This document shows, piece after piece, positions 14,859 through 53,091 of a stretch of DNA of 64,000 nucleotides (positions are counted from its first letter, which is position 1; each line of letters opens with the position of its first letter). Under the pieces are notes generated by a model. That model had not been told where the DNA came from and ran no database searches. It saw nothing but the letters and a program-made list of their open reading frames with translations. This DNA is from Escherichia coli (GTDB lineage Bacteria; Pseudomonadota; Gammaproteobacteria; Enterobacterales; Enterobacteriaceae): the NCBI RefSeq assembly GCF_003334335.1, contig NZ_QOWQ01000019.1; one strand, 5' to 3'. A program made the position numbers and the translations under genes.

Positions 14859-14887
14859 AAAAAAACGGCACCAGGTGCCGTTTTTTA
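14859..14887. terminator. Bidirectional intrinsic terminator between convergent tynA and feaB
   Basis: aaaaaaa-cggcacc-aggtgccg-tttttt: a hairpin flanked by an A-run and a T-run. Confidence 0.7.
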
Positions 14888-14904: not shown

Positions 14905-16404
14905 TTAATACCGTACACACACCGACTTAGTTTCACACCAACCGTCCAGCCAGTCGGGGCCAAAATCACGGCCCGTTCCTGACTGCTTCATCCCACCAAA
15001 CGGTAAGTTAGCGTCAATTAAGGTATGGCTGTTTACCCACACCGTCCCTGCCTGTAAGCGATCGCTATATTCCAGAGCCTGGGAGAGATTTTGCGTCCAG
15101 ACACTGGCAGTTAAGCCATATTCCGTGTCGTTTGCCAGTTGTAACGCCTCTTCTCCATCCGCTACTCGCACCAGGTTTACCACCGGACCAAACACCTCTT
15201 CACGAGTTAAGCGCAATTTAGCATCGGGATTTACCACCAGCGTTGGCGCAACATAATACCCCTCTCCGGCTGGTCCATTCGACCCGCGAATCAGCTCTGC
15301 TTGCTGTGCCTGCGCATCGTCGAGGAATGAACACACTTTGTCGCAGTGCGCACGAGAAACCAAAGGGTTAATCTGTGCAACAGGTGACATCCCCGGTCCC
15401 ACTTGCAACGATTTTACCGCCTGCTCAAATCCACTAACCAGCGTGTCAAACAACGGCGCTTCAATATAAATTCGCGAACTGGCGGCGCATACTTGCCCTT
15501 GATTCAGGAAGCTTCCGGTCATCAAGCCTTCAATAACCCATTGCGGATCAGCATCTTTTAATACAATTGCCGGGTTTTTACCGCCCAGTTCCAGCGTTAC
15601 ACGCGTTAAGTGATCAGCAGCAGTTCTGGCAATACCTTTTCCCGTCGCGGTTGAACCGGTAAAACTGATTTTCGCAACATGAGGATGTGACGTCAGGGCC
15701 GCGCCGCATACAGCACCTGACCCGGTGACGACATTAAAAACGCCATCAGGGATACCAGCCTCGCTGGCCAGTTCCGCCACGCGCAACATCGTCAGTGGCG
15801 TGGTTTCCGAAGGCTTAATCACGATTGAACAGCCTGCTGCCAGTGCTGGCATCACCTTCCACATACCAATCATCAACGGAAAGTTCCATGGCACAATTCC
15901 CGCCACTACGCCAACCGGCTCTTTACGCGTCCAGGCCTGATAACGCGCCCCCTGGGGTAAGGGAATCGACAAGTCCAGCGTTTTACCCGCGATTTTGGTC
16001 GTTAACCCGGCGGTATAACGCATCCAGTTCAGCGTACAGCCCACTTCAAAAGCACGGGAAATGGCAATTGACTTGCCTTGCTCCAGGGTTTCCAGTTGCG
16101 CCAGCTCCTCACTGTGCTGCTCCACCAGATCAGCAAAACGTAGCAGAATACGTTCACGCTCTGCGGGTAATCGCCCGGCCCAGCGACGCGAGACAAAGGC
16201 CCGCCAGGCAGACATGACTGCGTTATCTACATCCGCTTCGTTGGCATCAGCAGTAGACGCAATTTCTTGCCCGGTGGCCGGATCAAAGATCGCCAACCGT
16301 TTTTCACTTTGTGCGGGGCCAGGACGACCATCAATATAAAGACCGTGTTGACGATCGAGAAACTGTTGGACCTGGCTTAATACTGCTACATGCGGCTCTG
16401 TCAT
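14905..16404 (-). CDS. feaB: FeaB, phenylacetaldehyde dehydrogenase
   Basis: The 499-aa aldehyde-dehydrogenase-family ORF ([26 protein letters not shown]...) matches FeaB and sits next to feaR and tynA. Confidence 0.9.
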
Positions 16405-16407
16405 CAC

Positions 16408-16639
16408 TTTTCCTTATTATTTACCCAGTGTGATTTCAGTGTACGCAGCGACAAGAAAAGTCACTTTTTTCGCTGTGACATTCGCTTTGTCAGCTGTGAC
16501 AAGCTCCGCAAATCGTGACAATAACCGCTTATGTCTCTATGCCTGACAAGACTTATTTCCTATAGTCAGGCTCATTAGCTTCGTTTATTGCAACACAAAT
16601 GCAACAATAAAAATACATTTCACAGAGCGAAAACGTGCC
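16408..16639. promoter_or_regulatory. Divergent feaB / feaR promoter region
   Basis: Intergenic region between divergent genes; FeaR is the AraC-type activator of tynA and feaB. Confidence 0.5.
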
Positions 16640-17545
16640 ATGAACCCCGCAGTGGATAATGAGTTTCAGCAATGGCTTTCCCAAATCAATCAGGTATGCG
16701 GAAATTTTACCGGACGCCTGCTGACTGAGCGTTACACGGGTGTACTGGACACGCATTTTGCCAAAGGACTAAAGCTGAGTACCGTGACAACCAGCGGGGT
16801 GAATTTATCCCGCACCTGGCAGGAAGTAAAAGGCAGCGACGATGCCTGGTTTTACACCGTTTTTCAGCTTAGTGGTCAGGCAATAATGGAGCAGGATGAG
16901 CGTCAGGTGCAGATTGGCGCTGGCGATATTACGTTACTCGATGCCTCACGCCCCTGTTCGCTTTACTGGCAGGAGTCTTCTAAACAGATTTCATTACTTT
17001 TGCCACGCACTCTGCTGGAACAATATTTTCCCCATCAAAAACCTGTCTGCGCAGAAAGACTGGACGCTGACTTACCCATGGTGCAACTCAGTCATCGCCT
17101 GTTACAGGAGAGCATGAATAATCCGGCACTTTCTGAAACAGAAAGTGAAGCTGCGCTACAGGCGATGGTGTGTCTGCTGCGCCCGGTACTTCATCAGCGG
17201 GAATCTGTTCAACCTCGTCGTGAACGTCAGTTTCAAAAAGTGGTTACGTTGATAGACGATAATATTCGCGAAGAGATATTACGCCCGGAGTGGATAGCCG
17301 GAGAGACAGGTATGTCAGTACGTAGTTTGTACCGAATGTTTGCCGATAAAGGTTTGGTAGTCGCGCAATATATTCGTAACCGTCGTCTCGATTTTTGTGC
17401 AGATGCGATTCGCCATGCCGCAGATGATGAAAAACTGGCAGGCATCGGCTTTCATTGGGGATTTTCTGACCAGAGTCATTTTTCAACGGTATTTAAGCAA
17501 CGCTTTGGGATGACGCCAGGCGAGTATCGACGTAAATTCCGCTAA
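16640..17545 (+). CDS. feaR: FeaR, AraC-family transcriptional activator of tynA/feaB
   Basis: The 301-aa ORF has a C-terminal AraC helix-turn-helix signature (GFSDQSHFSTVFKQRFGMTPGEYRR). Confidence 0.9.
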   Translation: MNPAVDNEFQQWLSQINQVCGNFTGRLLTERYTGVLDTHFAKGLKLSTVTTSGVNLSRTWQEVKGSDDAWFYTVFQLSGQAIMEQDERQVQIGAGDITLLDASRPCSLYWQESSKQISLLLPRTLLEQYFPHQKPVCAERLDADLPMVQLSHRLLQESMNNPALSETESEAALQAMVCLLRPVLHQRESVQPRRERQFQKVVTLIDDNIREEILRPEWIAGETGMSVRSLYRMFADKGLVVAQYIRNRRLDFCADAIRHAADDEKLAGIGFHWGFSDQSHFSTVFKQRFGMTPGEYRRKFR

Positions 17546-17582
17546 CTAATTGGCGTTGCATGTACTGCAACGCCAATTAGTT
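17544..17582. terminator. Perfect 17-bp-stem palindrome between convergent feaR and ydbL; putative bidirectional terminator
   Basis: aactaattggcgttgca-tgtac-tgcaacgccaattagtt, immediately after the feaR stop at 17543-17545. Confidence 0.5.
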
Positions 17583-17716
17583 AAAACAGATATTTGACTA
17601 TGCATTTTTCAGGGCAAAAGGCAATTTGACAGGAGTTTTTGAATATTCACCTTGTTTCAGGAAAATAGATCAATCGCCTTCTCCTGTAGCGTTATCCCGA
17701 TATTGCGGTTTTGCTA

Positions 17717-18043
17717 TTAAAATTTTCGCACCCATTTACCGTTTATCCCTTGTACATATTCCCCCGGTTTGGCCCGAGCTACGAGCTTTTGCCCGGCGAG
17801 TTTCGCGATATCATCTACCGACACATTATTTTGCTTTGCCAGTTGTTGGTAACTCGCTTTACGTTCGGCATTAATGTCGGCTACTAATTTCTCTGTTTCA
17901 GCATCCGTTTTCAGCGCAACCAGATAACCGTAAAATGTTTCACCTACCCGCCCCTGAGTTCTGGCTTCATCCAGAGTCAATGCCATTACATTGCTGCTTA
18001 CCAGCCCAACAAGAAACGCACAAAGAAGTAATGTTTTCTTCAT
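17717..18043 (-). CDS. ydbL: YdbL, small periplasmic protein (DUF1318)
   Basis: ORF with signal peptide MKKTLLLCAFLVGLVSSNVMA; I placed the start at the internal Met that gives 108 aa. Confidence 0.75.
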   Translation of the reverse strand: MKKTLLLCAFLVGLVSSNVMALTLDEARTQGRVGETFYGYLVALKTDAETEKLVADINAERKASYQQLAKQNNVSVDDIAKLAGQKLVARAKPGEYVQGINGKWVRKF

Positions 18044-18050
18044 CATCACC

Positions 18051-18236
18051 TCAGAAAAGATCGCTACGAGTTTCAAGCAGCTCTTCGACATCTTTGTCTG
18101 CCTTGATGATGATCTCATGCTCAATTTTAACGTTCATATTGATAGTGATCGGTTCCTTAGGTGCAGCGACTTCAATGCGAGGCGTACAGCCAACCAGCAT
18201 AAAAGATGACGTCAACGCAGCCAGTAAAATTTTCAT
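18051..18236 (-). CDS. ynbE: YnbE, small lipoprotein
   Basis: 61-aa ORF with a lipobox (MKILLAALTSSFMLVGC); its start overlaps the ydbH stop. Confidence 0.8.
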   Translation of the reverse strand: MKILLAALTSSFMLVGCTPRIEVAAPKEPITINMNVKIEHEIIIKADKDVEELLETRSDLF

Positions 18237-20872
18237 TGTTTTTCCTCACACTCTTTTCCTTGCGGACAGTCATTTCCCGGCAGACGTGCGTTCTGCTCCA
18301 GCCATGCCTGGAGATTATCGCCAAAGCGTAAACTGCGCCACAGCGTAAAAATATTCTCTTCATGATGGTAATTAAGGTTTACCGTACCGCTTTTACCATC
18401 AACGCGACTGGTACCTGTAATGTTGGCCTGCATGGTTAATAAACCGAGATTATCTAAATTAATTTTTGTCGATGAACGGCTAATTTCCATATAGCGCAAC
18501 CAGTTAATTGCTGAACCTGCAGTCATATTGTCTTTTACAACCGCATCCGCAGTGTCTTTATCCAGTCGCAATGTCATCGGCCCGCTATTCGCCAGCCAGC
18601 CATCTTTCACAATCCATTTTTCATTGTTCAGCCATAACGGCAGTGCACCACTAAATGCCCCGGACATGGCGAATTGTTTCGGATTGACGGCGCTAACCAG
18701 TTCGCTGGATGAGAGATTATTCAGCCGCAACAGCGCCGGGTCATGTTGCGGCATACGTAATTGTTTCATCAGTACGTTACCGCCTAACACATCGACGCTA
18801 ACATCAGTCAACAGCAAGGGTTCTTCTTCAGTCCACGGATAACGCCCTTGCAAATCAGCCGTAATATTTTTCGCTGTCACCAGATTAATCACTTCGGCAA
18901 TTCGCAACGTAACGGGGCCGCGAGTCCCCAGATGCCAGGCTCCATCGGCAAAACGGAAAGGCAGGACAAAATCGACACCGTTAACCTGATTATCTGGCAT
19001 CCAGGCACTACCGCCTTTCAACACGCCGTGTCCTCCCGCGCGGAATCCTTGTTCAGGCGCAGCAGAAAATGCAACCTGAGCATACAGTTCACCATCGCGT
19101 AAGTTCATCTTCCAGTCGGGTGGCACCAGCGGCTGGAATACGGTCAGTGATTGTTTAGGCCACCAGGCGTTACCGCGCAGACGAATACCGTCCCAGCGAC
19201 CATTTACCCGAACCGGGCCAATCTCACCAGCATGTAAATCGCCTTTAAAGAGGAAATAGGTAGGATCGCGCCCATCGACGCTAAATTTTAAGGTTGATGG
19301 CGGTAACACACTGCCGCCAGTGAACAGCGTTTGCCCGGCGTCCAGTGACAGCGCGCCGCTAAAGGAGGGATGCTGTGCGTCACGTACCCAGACGATGGGC
19401 TTGTCGAGAATTAATCGCGGCTTTTCTACCGTCATCGTACCGTATTGTAACTGGTCGAAACCGGTGGAGAGATCGGTCAGCGTAATCGTGCTGTCATGCC
19501 ACTCACCTTTTCCTGCGACATCCCAGGTGGCATTCATCGGTGTAAAACTCCCTTTTCCCCAGTAGCGCCACTGCCAGCGGCCAGCGTCAGGGAGAAAATC
19601 ATTCGCCAGCCCATCCATATGCAGCACGAAATCGCCCAGTTCATTTTCATGCGCCTGCAAGATGGCCTGCAAACGTCCGTCAACACCACGTTGGGTGACT
19701 TTTACACCCGCTAAAGGCCAGCGGATTTCATCGATGTCCAGCGAATCGATGACTCTTCCCTTTGAACGAAGTAACGCGCCTGGCTCAAAGGTCAGCGTTG
19801 GGTCAGACAGACTTCCACTTAGCTGCGCAGGTAAACGGGCATATAAAATGAGGTCCGCCTGTTTCGCTTCACCGGTCAGCTGCAGAGGCAGCTGACTGTT
19901 ATCCATGCTTAATTTTCCTGGGCCAAAATTAAGCACCGCGTTGCCCTTACCCGCTTGCCCCTGGGTCAGCACACTCAGTCGTCCGCTGACCAGAGCGTTC
20001 TCAAGCCCTGCCTGCCAGTTGTCGACTTTGACACCCAGTCGGCCACTCAAAGGAAAACCTGCATACGGCCAGCTCCAGCGACCATCGCTTACGGTCAATT
20101 GTTGACGAGTAATTTGCCACGGCAAATCGAGCAACGGATCGCCGTTATCCCGTGCCAGCACGATCAATTGCCCGCTATTTTCCTGCCAGTCCAGCTCGGC
20201 ATCCACCAGTGACGGTTCCTGCGGCAAGTTTAACGTCGCAGTAGCATGCCCACTTACAGGAAGTCCATCCGGCACGAGCGGCATAGCAAATTCCCCCACC
20301 AGTTTTACCGGCGGCTGATTTTCAAACGCGACGACATCCAGTTCGCTGACTGTAAGTTGTTGCCCTTTCAGCTGGCCTTGAAATTTAACTTTTTCGCCCT
20401 GATAACGCAGTTGCTGGATATCAGAGGTTAATGCGAGAGAGAGTTTTCCCTGCCATTCCTGCCAGGGAGAAAAAATCAGTTTATCGATATTGATCCAGGT
20501 GTTAGGCAGCATGGCCTGCCACTGCGCGAGTGTTTTTGGAGCGGCTGGCGATTGCTCCGTCTGCGGCAATTTCGCCAGACAAGCAGAATCAAGTTCTACC
20601 GTGCCGACGTTCAATAACCAGCGGCTGGGATGTGAAAGGCTGGCGTTGGTGATATGCGCAAGCTGACAATCTCCCACCAGATAACGGAGATCGGGAATGA
20701 TTAAACCTTTACGCGTAATGCGTGGGCTTTCATCTAATGCAATACGTGTCCCGAGCGGTAGCCAGATGCCCGCCAGCGTGGGAACCCACAGCCCGAGCGT
20801 CATCAGCAGCGTCAACGGCACAAGAATAATCAGTAATAACAGCGCGAGAACGGCTTTATATTTACCCAGCAT
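18233..20872 (-). CDS. ydbH: YdbH, AsmA-family large envelope protein
   Basis: 879-aa ORF with an N-terminal transmembrane anchor (MLGKYKAVLALLLLIILVPLTLLMTLGLWV) in conserved position upstream of ynbE and ydbL. Confidence 0.85.
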   Translation of the reverse strand: MLGKYKAVLALLLLIILVPLTLLMTLGLWVPTLAGIWLPLGTRIALDESPRITRKGLIIPDLRYLVGDCQLAHITNASLSHPSRWLLNVGTVELDSACLAKLPQTEQSPAAPKTLAQWQAMLPNTWINIDKLIFSPWQEWQGKLSLALTSDIQQLRYQGEKVKFQGQLKGQQLTVSELDVVAFENQPPVKLVGEFAMPLVPDGLPVSGHATATLNLPQEPSLVDAELDWQENSGQLIVLARDNGDPLLDLPWQITRQQLTVSDGRWSWPYAGFPLSGRLGVKVDNWQAGLENALVSGRLSVLTQGQAGKGNAVLNFGPGKLSMDNSQLPLQLTGEAKQADLILYARLPAQLSGSLSDPTLTFEPGALLRSKGRVIDSLDIDEIRWPLAGVKVTQRGVDGRLQAILQAHENELGDFVLHMDGLANDFLPDAGRWQWRYWGKGSFTPMNATWDVAGKGEWHDSTITLTDLSTGFDQLQYGTMTVEKPRLILDKPIVWVRDAQHPSFSGALSLDAGQTLFTGGSVLPPSTLKFSVDGRDPTYFLFKGDLHAGEIGPVRVNGRWDGIRLRGNAWWPKQSLTVFQPLVPPDWKMNLRDGELYAQVAFSAAPEQGFRAGGHGVLKGGSAWMPDNQVNGVDFVLPFRFADGAWHLGTRGPVTLRIAEVINLVTAKNITADLQGRYPWTEEEPLLLTDVSVDVLGGNVLMKQLRMPQHDPALLRLNNLSSSELVSAVNPKQFAMSGAFSGALPLWLNNEKWIVKDGWLANSGPMTLRLDKDTADAVVKDNMTAGSAINWLRYMEISRSSTKINLDNLGLLTMQANITGTSRVDGKSGTVNLNYHHEENIFTLWRSLRFGDNLQAWLEQNARLPGNDCPQGKECEEKQ

Positions 20873-50852: not shown

Positions 50853-51359
50853 ATGTCACAAACCGTTCATTTCCAGGGCAACCCGGTTACAGTCGCCAAT
50901 TCCATCCCGCAGGCGGGTAGCAAAGCGCAGACTTTTACTCTCGTGGCAAAAGATCTGTCTGACGTCACCCTCGGTCAGTTTGCGGGTAAACGCAAAGTGC
51001 TGAACATTTTCCCGAGTATTGATACCGGTGTTTGCGCCGCATCAGTACGTAAGTTTAACCAACTGGCAACTGAGATCGACAACACCGTTGTGCTGTGTAT
51101 CTCTGCCGATCTGCCGTTCGCCCAGTCTCGTTTCTGCGGCGCAGAAGGTCTGAACAACGTTATCACCCTCTCCACTTTCCGTAACGCTGAATTTCTGCAA
51201 GCTTACGGTGTGGCAATTGCTGATGGCCCACTGAAAGGTCTGGCAGCGCGTGCCGTTGTGGTTATTGACGAAAATGACAATGTGATTTTCAGCCAGCTGG
51301 TGGATGAAATCACCACCGAGCCGGATTACGAAGCAGCTCTGGCTGTACTGAAAGCATAA
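50853..51359 (+). CDS. tpx: Tpx, thiol peroxidase
   Basis: 168-aa [41 protein letters not shown]... with the peroxidatic Cys in the conserved DTGVCA context. Confidence 0.95.
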
Positions 51360-51363
51360 TTTA

Positions 51364-51396
51364 ATATGCCTGATGGTGTTGCACCATCAGGCATAT
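51364..51396. terminator. 15-bp-stem palindrome between convergent tpx and tyrR (putative bidirectional terminator)
   Basis: atatgcctgatggtg-ttg-caccatcaggcatat, immediately after the tpx stop. Confidence 0.4.
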
Positions 51397-51402
51397 TCGC
51401 GC

Positions 51403-52944
51403 TTACTCTTCGTTCTTCTTCTGACTCAGACCATATTCCCGCAACTTATTGGCAATCGCGGTATGTGAAACGCCGAGACGTTTTGCCAGTTTGCGCGTGC
51501 TGGGATAATTGCGATAAAGCTGGGTTAATACCGAGCGTTCAAAACGGCTGGTGATTTCGTCCAGCGAACCTTCCATCGCATCTTCGCCCACGGCTACCGT
51601 TGCGGCGTCATAATCCGGCAACAAAATATCCTGTGGACGCAGCTCATAACCGTCCAGTTGTGTCAGTGCGCGATAGATAGCGTTCTTTAACTGCCGCACA
51701 TTTCCCGGCCACGCATAACGCGTAAGTACAGTATTCAGGTCAGCGGCCAGTTTCGGACGCGGCACGCCCTGCTCGTCGGCAAAGCGGGCGACGAACAGCT
51801 CAGTTAACGGCATGATGTCCTGCGGACAGTCACGTAGCGGCGGCAGATTGAGCGTCAACACGTTCAGACGATAATAGAGATCTTCACGGAACATGCCTTT
51901 TTGCACCAGTTCGACCAGATTCTTCTGCGTAGCGCAAATCACCCGCACATCGACATGCACCTCATGGTCTTCGCCAACCCGACGGAAAGTGCCATCATTA
52001 AGGAAACGCAGTAATTTCGCCTGCATCCGTGGTGACATTTCCCCTATTTCATCCAACAGCACCGAACCACCGTTCGCCTGCTCAAAGAATCCTTTCTTCC
52101 CTTCCGGAGCATGACCAAACAGTTCACTCTCGACCGCATCTTCCGGTATAGACGCACAGTTCAGCGCCAGGTAAGGTTTGCCCGCTCTGGGGCTTGCCTG
52201 ATGGCAGGCGTAGGCAAAGAGATCTTTACCTGTACCTGTGTCACCCGTAATCAGCAGCGGCGCGCTTAGCATCGCCAGTTTCTGCGCCTGTTCGACAACA
52301 TGCTTCATTTTCGGGCTGACGGCGACAATTTGACTGAAGGCGCTGACGTCCTGGGCGGCGACATTTTGCAACTGGCGGCCCATACGAATCGTTGATCGCA
52401 ACATCACCACCGCACCGGTCAGGACGTGTTGATCATTTTCATCCTGAAGATAAACAGGCGTAATCTCCATCAGGAAATTCTGCCCATTAATAACGACATG
52501 CTCGTTATGCGAATCTTGCGGTTCGCTTTCCAGCCAACGTAAAAAATTAAAGCCGTTAATCAATTGTGCGGCGGTATGGTTGCGCAGGCGATCCAATTTT
52601 TGCCCAAAAAGCTGACAGCTCGCCGGGTTCGCCATATCCACTTTGCTTTTCATATCGACAGAGAGCACAGGTTCAGGCAACGCCTCCAGTAACGCGCTCA
52701 ACGCCAGATGCTCACGTTCGGAAGGCATCCACGGGACAGTACGCACATCGGTAACACCCGCAATACGGCGTATTTCGGCCATCAGACTGCTGAAACTCTC
52801 AAACTCCAGTTCAGCAAAATTGAGGTAGATTCGCCCAATGGGATCAATCTCAATACCGCGTAAATCAATGCCTCTTAGCACGAGTAGATCGAGTAATTCG
52901 CGGGTCAGACCGAGTCGGTCTTCACAAAAGACTTCCAGACGCAT
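51403..52944 (-). CDS. tyrR: TyrR, aromatic amino-acid regulon transcriptional regulator
   Basis: 513-aa ORF with ACT/PAS, sigma-54-type AAA+ (GDTGTGKD) and C-terminal helix-turn-helix domains, from the internal Met MRLEVFCEDRLGL. Confidence 0.95.
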   Translation of the reverse strand: MRLEVFCEDRLGLTRELLDLLVLRGIDLRGIEIDPIGRIYLNFAELEFESFSSLMAEIRRIAGVTDVRTVPWMPSEREHLALSALLEALPEPVLSVDMKSKVDMANPASCQLFGQKLDRLRNHTAAQLINGFNFLRWLESEPQDSHNEHVVINGQNFLMEITPVYLQDENDQHVLTGAVVMLRSTIRMGRQLQNVAAQDVSAFSQIVAVSPKMKHVVEQAQKLAMLSAPLLITGDTGTGKDLFAYACHQASPRAGKPYLALNCASIPEDAVESELFGHAPEGKKGFFEQANGGSVLLDEIGEMSPRMQAKLLRFLNDGTFRRVGEDHEVHVDVRVICATQKNLVELVQKGMFREDLYYRLNVLTLNLPPLRDCPQDIMPLTELFVARFADEQGVPRPKLAADLNTVLTRYAWPGNVRQLKNAIYRALTQLDGYELRPQDILLPDYDAATVAVGEDAMEGSLDEITSRFERSVLTQLYRNYPSTRKLAKRLGVSHTAIANKLREYGLSQKKNEE

Positions 52945-53091
52945 GGGAACCTTCACCTGAAAAAAGAACAATTAATATGATGATATGACACTATTTGGAT
53001 AGCAGGAAGGTTTCTGTCAACAATCATTGACACAAAGACGGAAAAACGGGCACTTCGGCGTAAAGATATCCGGTCAGCACCCGATATTGCA

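Follow-up and report, generated by a model that had tools for sequence, protein, structure and literature searches.

Between the convergent genes feaR and ydbL of Escherichia coli lies a 41-bp palindrome that is real, beyond chance, and that we read with moderate confidence as a shared protective 3' stem-loop of two converging, weakly expressed, Rho-terminated transcripts. The DNA is palindromic, and a single 41-bp segment therefore gives the same hairpin to both strands. The element was studied in a stretch of 64,000 nucleotides from E. coli contig NZ_QOWQ01000019.1 (assembly GCF_003334335.1), hereafter the window, which reads as the reverse complement of NC_000913.3; the palindrome corresponds to MG1655 positions 1446340..1446380, and a 651-bp stretch surrounding it matches E. 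coli K-12 MG1655 with 100% identity. The convergence of feaR (+) and ydbL (-), given in a preliminary description of this DNA made by reading its letters and open reading frames, is correct by the ORFs and by RefSeq. In NC_000913.3, ydbL occupies 1445880..1446206 (+) and feaR 1446378..1447283 (-). The features of the locus, in window coordinates, are as follows:

16640..17545, + strand: feaR coding sequence (NCBIfam equivalog NF007243, E = 8e-152; RefSeq)
17240..17422, - strand: region antisense to feaR, candidate rut/termination zone (Adams et al. 2021 peak; C/G profile)
17543..17560: 5' arm of the palindrome (on the + strand), TAACTAATTGGCGTTGCA, whose first three bases are the feaR TAA stop (repeat search, ORF end, RefSeq)
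17552..17574: GC-rich inner core, 9 bp plus loop, holding all six positions polymorphic in E. coli
17561..17565: loop, TGTAC (repeat search, fold)
17566..17583: 3' arm, TGCAACGCCAATTAGTTA (repeat search, fold)
17584..17716: non-coding spacer, constituting the ydbL 3' UTR (- strand) and the feaR downstream region (+ strand)
17717..18043, - strand: ydbL, last gene of the ydbH-ynbE-ydbL run (ORF list, RefSeq)

An inverted-repeat search delimits the palindrome at 17543-17583 as TAACTAATTGGCGTTGCA-TGTAC-TGCAACGCCAATTAGTTA, with arms of 18+18 nt that are 100% complementary and a 5-nt loop; the stem is A/U-rich on the outside and GC-rich on the inside. The preliminary description had recognized the perfect hairpin and its 5-nt loop but had assigned it a 17-bp stem at 17544-17582, missing the outermost T-A pair, and had it begin directly after the feaR stop codon. 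T17543 is in fact the first base of the feaR TAA stop, and the whole stop codon thus lies inside the 5' arm. The fold-energy calculation proposed at that stage bears out the strength of the structure: with RNAfold, the + strand 41-mer folds at -26.7 kcal/mol (z = -8.95), with 0 of 200 shuffles folding as well. With flanking sequence included, the energies are -27.7 kcal/mol on the + strand and -33.0 kcal/mol on the - strand (RNAfold), where a 2-nt bulge lets the helix reach about 23 bp. Within the 64-kb window, the palindrome is the longest perfect short-loop inverted repeat, followed by repeats of 16 bp at 51363-51397 and 13 bp at 14860-14886, and its core pattern, with up to three mismatches allowed, occurs once where 100 shuffles give an expectation of 0.00.

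The hairpin lies 134 nt downstream of the ydbL stop codon, and it would constitute the end of the feaR mRNA if it defines that transcript's 3' end. The 171-nt feaR-ydbL spacer of NC_000913.3 carries no annotated feature and no repeat_region, a promoter/terminator consensus scan made no call in the spacer, and literature searches on feaR together with ydbL, on a ydbL terminator and on a feaR terminator returned nothing on a hairpin or site between the two genes. An Rfam search of 16400-18400 at E <= 10 placed only chance miRNA-like matches on the hairpin, far below gathering scores. Two types of candidate promoter or operator sequence were also set aside on inspection by eye: a sigma-54 promoter (TGGCG..TTGCA), in which the GG-GC spacing is about 5 nt as against the roughly 10 needed, and boxes resembling those of PdhR, TyrR and FNR.

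One proposal carried by the preliminary description, that of a bidirectional terminator, finds no support in the intrinsic sense, given the missing tracts, the negative scores and a drop in transcription in the ydbL direction that is Rho-dependent. The GC-rich stem-loop expected of an intrinsic terminator is present, in the form of the 9-bp core within the 18-bp stem, and the 7-8 nt U-rich tract expected 3' of the stem is absent. For the + strand this absence had been pointed out from the start (tail AAACAGATATTTGAC / AAACAGAU), and it holds on the - strand as well, where the tail GCGGAATTTACGTCG / GCGGAAUU has no U-tract. The sequence that follows the GC-rich core, AAUUAGUU, contains 4 U among its 8 residues. 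The position between convergent genes is the one expected of a bidirectional terminator, but the A-tract/U-tract flanks are lacking, the flanks CCGC / AAAC offering neither an A-tract upstream nor a U-tract downstream on either strand. Terminator scores of the d'Aubenton-Carafa type, computed for the full stem plus three shorter registers on both strands, range from -12 to -53 and are negative in every register on both strands; the best register, TTGGCG..CGCCAA then TTAGTTA, scores -12 to -16. A control is supplied by the tynA/feaB terminator at 14860-14886 (AAAAAAACGGCACC-A-GGTGCCGTTTTTT), a canonical A7-stem-T6 structure situated 2.7 kb from the palindrome, for which the same procedure gives +13 to +27 on both strands. 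The stem alone is no ground for a label of intrinsic or bidirectional terminator, and the value of this result is mostly one of annotation.

What is seen in the ydbL direction is a signature of Rho. Adams and colleagues reported a Rho termination region on the ydbL-sense strand (MG1655 +) with its peak at 1446501, a score of 4.0 and p = 1.3e-5 (Adams et al. 2021, PMC7815308). The peak converts to window position 17422, 121 nt beyond the hairpin and inside the sequence antisense to feaR, which puts the Rho-dependent termination region for ydbL-direction transcription some 120-160 nt after the hairpin. Coverage upstream/downstream was 54/14 without bicyclomycin (-BCM) and 87/91 with it (+BCM), figures that come from one culture, 800-nt windows and tens of reads, are coarse in resolution and pertain to the ydbL direction only (Adams et al. 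2021, PMC7815308). At this low resolution, no termination persists in the ydbL direction under Rho inhibition. The drop vanishes when Rho is inhibited; the hairpin alone therefore does not stop the polymerase, and the data show no block independent of Rho. Past the hairpin, the RNA has a C/G ratio of up to 2.1 on the - strand (about 17360-17240) and of 1.5-2.2 on the + strand (17660-18020), and this C-rich, G-poor composition on both strands fits rut-like sequence. The preliminary description had specified that transcript 3' ends mapping elsewhere, combined with read-through across the hairpin, would tell against its functional proposals; read-through is indeed seen with bicyclomycin in the ydbL direction, and no curated 3' end lies at the hairpin. 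More precisely, the curated Term-seq 3' ends from three conditions include none at or near the hairpin, in the interval 14461xx-14464xx (Adams et al. 2021, PMC7815308). The same curated lists hold no 3' end for feaB, tynA, ydbH or ynbE either, and low expression may thus explain why the hairpin is missing from them. In those portions of the TRS and SMRT-Cappable-seq supplement text that were accessible, neither gene names nor coordinate prefixes gave a match.

Together, the anatomy of the element on both strands and the Rho signature on the ydbL strand lead to the reading of a shared protective 3' stem-loop. Researchers established that Rho-dependent 3' ends in E. coli lie nearly all just after stable, low-U stem-loops without an A-tract, that C>G sequence or rut sites occur just downstream, and that PNPase and RNase II shorten the tails as far as the stem (Dar & Sorek 2018, PMC6061677). 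At feaR/ydbL, the stem is stable, downstream U is low and an A-tract is lacking, and bicyclomycin sensitivity and C>G sequence are both found, the evidence on Rho being confined to one direction. By this mechanism, RNA polymerase arriving from ydbH-ynbE-ydbL would transcribe through the palindrome, and polymerase arriving from feaR probably does so too, all behavior in the feaR direction being inferred. Rho would then release the polymerase further on, in sequence antisense to the opposing gene that yields C-rich, untranslated RNA; the 3'-to-5' exonucleases PNPase and RNase II would trim the ragged tails to the base of the hairpin, and this base would become the protective 3' end of each mRNA and presumably stabilize it. 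Among the functions first entertained for the hairpin, that of an RNA-stability element is accordingly the best-supported option in respect of its anatomy and of the rut-like C>G sequence downstream, with the stabilizing effect itself a matter of likelihood.

Sequence variation within E. coli provides a further view of the element. Six alleles were distinguished, and about 97% of carriers have one of the four designated A, B, C or D; the fold energies listed are those of the + strand:

Allele A (K-12): no change; perfect 18 bp; -26.7 kcal/mol; 1403 exact genomes
Allele B (BL21, C7): 17552 C only, giving a C.C mismatch; -20.1 kcal/mol; about 410 genomes, including allele F and other near-matches
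Allele C (042, ST131, E166): 17552 G to C, 17574 C to G and 17566 T to A; -24.9 kcal/mol; 880 exact genomes
Allele D (H10, 190): CA to TG at 17559-60; -23.4 kcal/mol; 1327 exact genomes
Allele E: the changes of B plus those of D; -16.8 kcal/mol; rare
Allele F: B plus a C to T wobble; -18.2 kcal/mol; rare

All six alleles fold into the same hairpin, with energies of -16.8 to -26.7 kcal/mol. Allele C combines a compensated G-C to C-G swap with a change at 17566 that opens the loop-closing pair, and allele D has two G.U wobbles on the feaR-sense RNA and A.C mismatches on the other strand. One pair went from G-C to C-G via a C.C intermediate; the remaining three substitutions in the stem, all transitions, produce G.U pairs in the feaR-sense RNA. 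This count of one double change and three wobble changes does not amount to significant covariation, as 335 of 500 shuffles did as well with the six alleles. The polymorphic positions (17552, 17554, 17559, 17560, 17566 and 17574) all fall in the inner core, and the outer A/U-rich 9 bp, or 18 stem bases, are invariant among the 12 genomes compared. Variable sites make up 6 of the 41 positions of the palindrome and 19 of the 133 positions of the neighboring spacer (14%), an equal density. In the haplotype matrix, C at 17552 occurs on several diverged backgrounds and G at 17552 only in the closely related A/D (K-12/D) clade, from which it follows that the perfect palindrome is derived and the mismatched form old. 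The perfect form is present in about a third of carriers and an asymmetric version in about 65%; the description of the palindrome as unusually perfect is therefore apt for the K-12-like allele but not as a conserved property of the element, and its perfection is a recent derived state. Several of these observations run counter to a protective role: conservation is no higher than that of the spacer, the mismatch allele sits on several haplotype backgrounds, and covariation falls short of significance. The allele series, with perfect, mismatched and compensated forms spread over about 4200 genomes, amounts to a small natural experiment on how much pairing 3' structures need.

Megablast and blastn searches of 5426 complete E. 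coli genomes located the element in 4191 of them, always as a single copy at this locus. A second 'place' per genome in the blastn search most likely reflects a match of the palindrome to its own reverse strand, and the search for the palindrome elsewhere, recommended in the preliminary description, disclosed no further copy in the window or in the E. coli genomes. Viral contigs gave no match; the plasmid and phage records with a match are two 'plasmids' of 4.8-4.9 Mb, which must be chromosomes, a 252-kb plasmid and a 23-kb phage record that carries no annotation. A remnant of a mobile element (MITE, IS end or phage att site) was rejected on account of the single locus and the unmatched viral contigs, as was a REP/BIME repeat, given the single copy, the lack of a REP consensus and the lack of a repeat_region in NC_000913.3.

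About 23% of E. coli genomes are without the element. By alignment and blastn, segment 17546-17652 is found solely alongside the feaR 3' end, and segment 17653-17716 persists also in strains that lack the fea/paa cluster; in such strains, e.g. Nissle, everything left of 17653 is lost, the hairpin included. Strains with deletions that leave a 3' feaR remnant, a pseudogene, keep the hairpin. Beyond the species, a FeaR-based search yielded four usable outgroup loci, none of which has the element. In Pseudocitrobacter faecalis, P. vendiensis and a Pluralibacter MAG, feaR and ydbL are convergent and their stop codons abut (TGA/TTA), with no spacer and no hairpin. In the divergent Escherichia lineage L014, whose FeaR is 97% identical, blastn homology to the window breaks off precisely at the feaR stop codon, where the palindrome has its left edge, and sets in again at that of ydbL; the intervening spacer is unrelated, about 72 nt long and devoid of a strong hairpin. 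Since the element is missing from relatives that have the same gene pair, it is young, specific to E. coli and dispensable to the gene pair. This dispensability over evolution, evident from its absence in part of E. coli and in relatives, also goes against a protective function.

Several other explanations can be weighed against these data. One that we consider unlikely holds that the element is a weak or context-dependent bidirectional terminator, in which a hairpin of the 9-11 bp GC core would be followed by the outer stem AAUUAGUUA acting as a degenerate U-tract, or that the stem-loop positions polymerase collisions. The symmetrical element sits exactly between convergent genes, its A/U-rich outer and GC-rich inner stem resembles the A-tract/U-tract pairing of bidirectional terminators, and the best register is only mildly negative; a nascent stem-loop is needed to fix the position of collisions between convergent genes (Wang et al., bioRxiv 10.1101/2022.10.23.513370). 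A terminator of this kind would be least unlikely when feaR is induced. Mixed cases, in which inefficient intrinsic termination is joined to Rho, have been noted (Dar & Sorek 2018, PMC6061677). Yet coverage in the ydbL direction stays level across the site once Rho is inhibited (87 upstream vs 91 downstream), and no register is positive on either strand, unlike those of the nearby tynA/feaB terminator. Moreover, because the stop codon is part of the 5' arm, ribosomes that finish feaR there would keep the arm unpaired, as judged from the known ribosome footprint. Cleavage by RNase III, by which the helix, or a sense/antisense duplex of the two overlapping transcripts, would be cut so as to destabilize or mature the feaR and ydbL mRNAs, strikes us as very improbable. 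A helix of about 18-23 bp is near the length that RNase III accepts, and the element supplies a perfect helix of 18 bp and, on the - strand, a bulged one of about 23 bp; at the tpx/tyrR palindrome, furthermore, the dominant Term-seq 3' end is located within the 5' arm, 6 nt in, a position that fits stem cleavage and not exonuclease stalling. On the other hand, 18 bp is short for efficient cleavage, and alleles with internal mismatches are common.

It is also unlikely, if conceivable on evolutionary grounds, that the palindrome is largely neutral and lineage-specific, a by-product of the origin of the spacer by inverted duplication or template switch that was re-perfected by templated mutation and has no important function. 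The homology breakpoint of L014 at the left edge of the palindrome, the other genera without any spacer and the retention of the element by strains with a feaR remnant are what such an origin would leave behind, as are a polymorphism density equal to that of the flanking spacer, a mismatch allele that is long-lived (about 400 genomes on diverged backgrounds) and a perfect form that is derived and restricted to the K-12/D clade. Correction of quasipalindromes by template switching is reportedly a documented mutational mechanism in E. coli, credited to Ripley, Lovett and colleagues, and would yield 'compensatory' changes without selection. Against neutrality, every allele keeps a hairpin of -16.8 kcal/mol or better, and the outer 18 stem bases are invariant while the adjacent spacer varies at 14% of its sites. 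All three of the stem transitions are wobble-compatible on the feaR-sense RNA, a weak point given a chance expectation of about 1 in 8; and so stable a structure within a transcribed 3' region will block exonucleases, selected or not. Scarcely credible, finally, is an operator at the DNA level, where a dimeric protein on two half-sites would block transcription or organize the locus. The dyad symmetry of K-12 is perfect over 41 bp, and the G-C to C-G swap keeps DNA symmetry as well as RNA pairing, but alleles B, D, E and F are asymmetric, with D (1327 genomes) altering two adjacent bases and B one, in a single arm; nothing is annotated at the site in NC_000913.3, and the element is missing in relatives with the same gene pair. 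The operator is disfavored because most carriers have asymmetric half-sites, and the protein-binding site raised in the preliminary description accordingly goes without support, about 65% of carriers being asymmetric and the commonest variant pairing through G.U wobbles only.

A more speculative proposal, which we regard as quite improbable, builds on the protective stem-loop. The feaR stop in the 5' arm would couple translation termination to the hairpin, with the ribosome gating the access of Rho, RNase III or exonucleases, and the arms would be kept matched by template-switch mutation. Such palindrome-templated mutation would explain both the clustering of polymorphism in the core and the re-formation of a G-C pair as C-G.

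The closest relatives of the feaR/ydbL hairpin are the stem-loops that precede Rho-dependent 3' ends, and the hairpin is an unannotated example of this known class, with nothing surprising in it for a specialist. It resembles the elements described by Dar & Sorek in its stable stem, the lack of a U- or A-tract, the C>G sequence downstream, the bicyclomycin-sensitive termination shortly beyond and the weak expression. It differs in that theirs come with a mapped steady-state 3' end, whereas the feaR/ydbL hairpin is placed by its anatomy and Rho signature, and in that one palindrome would serve two converging transcripts and holds the stop codon of one gene inside its stem.

REP elements offer a second comparison. 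They attenuate transcription partly via Rho and stabilize upstream mRNA, and their presence at convergent gene pairs is associated with increased expression of the two genes (Harris et al. 2026, bioRxiv 10.64898/2026.03.23.713779). Like them, the feaR/ydbL element is an extragenic palindrome whose location varies between strains; unlike them, it is single-copy, lacks the REP consensus and bears no repeat_region annotation.

Within the window itself, the 16-bp palindrome at 51363-51397 between tpx and tyrR presents a further parallel: it is perfect, A/T-rich on the outside and GC-rich on the inside, has no U-tract, fills a convergent spacer and is followed, in the direction of tpx transcription, by a strong Rho region (Rho score 19). 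It differs in that its hairpin begins 4 nt after the tpx stop, in that tpx is highly expressed and in that its mapped 3' end falls within the 5' arm. A 3' end located there instead of beyond the stem suggests a different kind of processing and, by analogy, hints that palindromes of convergent genes might be processed in a way not yet described.

Bidirectional intrinsic terminators, which are said to have been described genome-wide at convergent genes by Ju et al. in 2019, share with the feaR/ydbL element a single palindrome between convergent genes that gives the same hairpin on both transcripts, as at tynA/feaB. The stem of 18 perfect bp and -27 kcal/mol is longer than typical terminator stems. 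Unlike these terminators, the feaR/ydbL palindrome has no A-/U-tract flanks, scores negatively and depends on Rho in one direction. A canonical bidirectional terminator and a palindrome without a U-tract that is tied to Rho thus stand 2.7 kb apart on the same DNA, forming a clean side-by-side pair.

Among the 12 Escherichia coli genomes compared, all six polymorphic sites of the feaR/ydbL palindrome fall within the 23-nt inner core and loop (window 17552-17574; density 0.26), and the 18 outer stem bases and the adjoining 17 nt of spacer have none. This clustering could mark a mutational hot spot associated with the hairpin, or the outer stem and the sequence around the stop codon could be under selection.

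Changes around feaR and ydbL were seen at the following comparison loci:

L003 (strain M45), 674-1252: paa-feaR deletion fusion
L004 (strain E166), 849-1208: paa-feaR deletion fusion
L019 (O157:H7 strain AC-5), 2499-2822: divergent ydbL

Recurrent deletions, seen at the first two loci, have taken out tynA-feaB along with the bulk of the paa cluster; what is left of feaR, a piece of its 3' end, is fused directly to paaY or paaX, itself truncated. The deletions start at different points on the left, and on the right they end at query position 45 or at 86-89, a difference of 41-44 nt; the hairpin and ydbL are untouched in all of them, and a feaR 3' remnant of this type is present in ST131 genomes. 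In the O157:H7 strain, ydbL adjoins a gene for a proline-rich-domain protein, with no neighbouring feaR. The ydbL-ydbH region matches the window at 92% identity over a 5-kb blastn alignment, and megablast found a fragment within ydbL at 77%. Homology to the window starts only at the ydbL stop; at least three replacements of the 3' flank of ydbL have therefore occurred in Escherichia.

Two further palindromes in the window lie between convergent genes (tpx and tyrR, which flank the second, are listed with it):

14860-14886: canonical bidirectional intrinsic terminator, AAAAAAACGGCACC-A-GGTGCCGTTTTTT, between tynA and feaB
50853..51359, + strand: tpx
51363-51397: second perfect palindrome, 16+16 nt with a 3-nt loop, arms AATATGCCTGATGGTG/CACCATCAGGCATATT
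51403..52971, - strand: tyrR

The tynA/feaB palindrome served as the positive control for terminator scoring and returned a positive score on both strands. Neither feaB nor tynA has a Term-seq 3' end among those listed by Adams et al. (2021, PMC7815308), and the entire fea/tyn region was thus probably silent under the conditions of that study.

The tpx/tyrR palindrome, which has no U-tract, occupies almost the whole 43-nt spacer between its genes. The main Term-seq 3' end of tpx (MG1655 1388306, - strand; Adams et al. 2021, PMC7815308) is situated 6 nt within the 5' arm of the hairpin, not past the stem; possible explanations are cleavage by RNase III, or an artefact of ligation or structure. 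Downstream of the hairpin, antisense to tyrR, the same study reported a strong Rho region in the tpx direction (score 19), with counts of 293/9 without bicyclomycin versus 225/132 with it.

The feaR and tpx stops are about 33.8 kb apart in the window (17543 to 51359) versus about 58.1 kb in MG1655 (1446380 versus 1388306), so that some 24 kb of MG1655 is missing from the window's strain, a difference that would fit absence of the Rac prophage. At the feaR locus the window resembles K-12, yet it is not MG1655 itself.

In Pseudocitrobacter and Pluralibacter (L015, L016 and L017, ~3400-3410), the feaR and ydbL stop codons abut (TGA|TTA) with zero intergenic bases, and each transcript must therefore end within the opposing gene. 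These genera provide a natural contrast, in which the convergent genes manage without any common hairpin.
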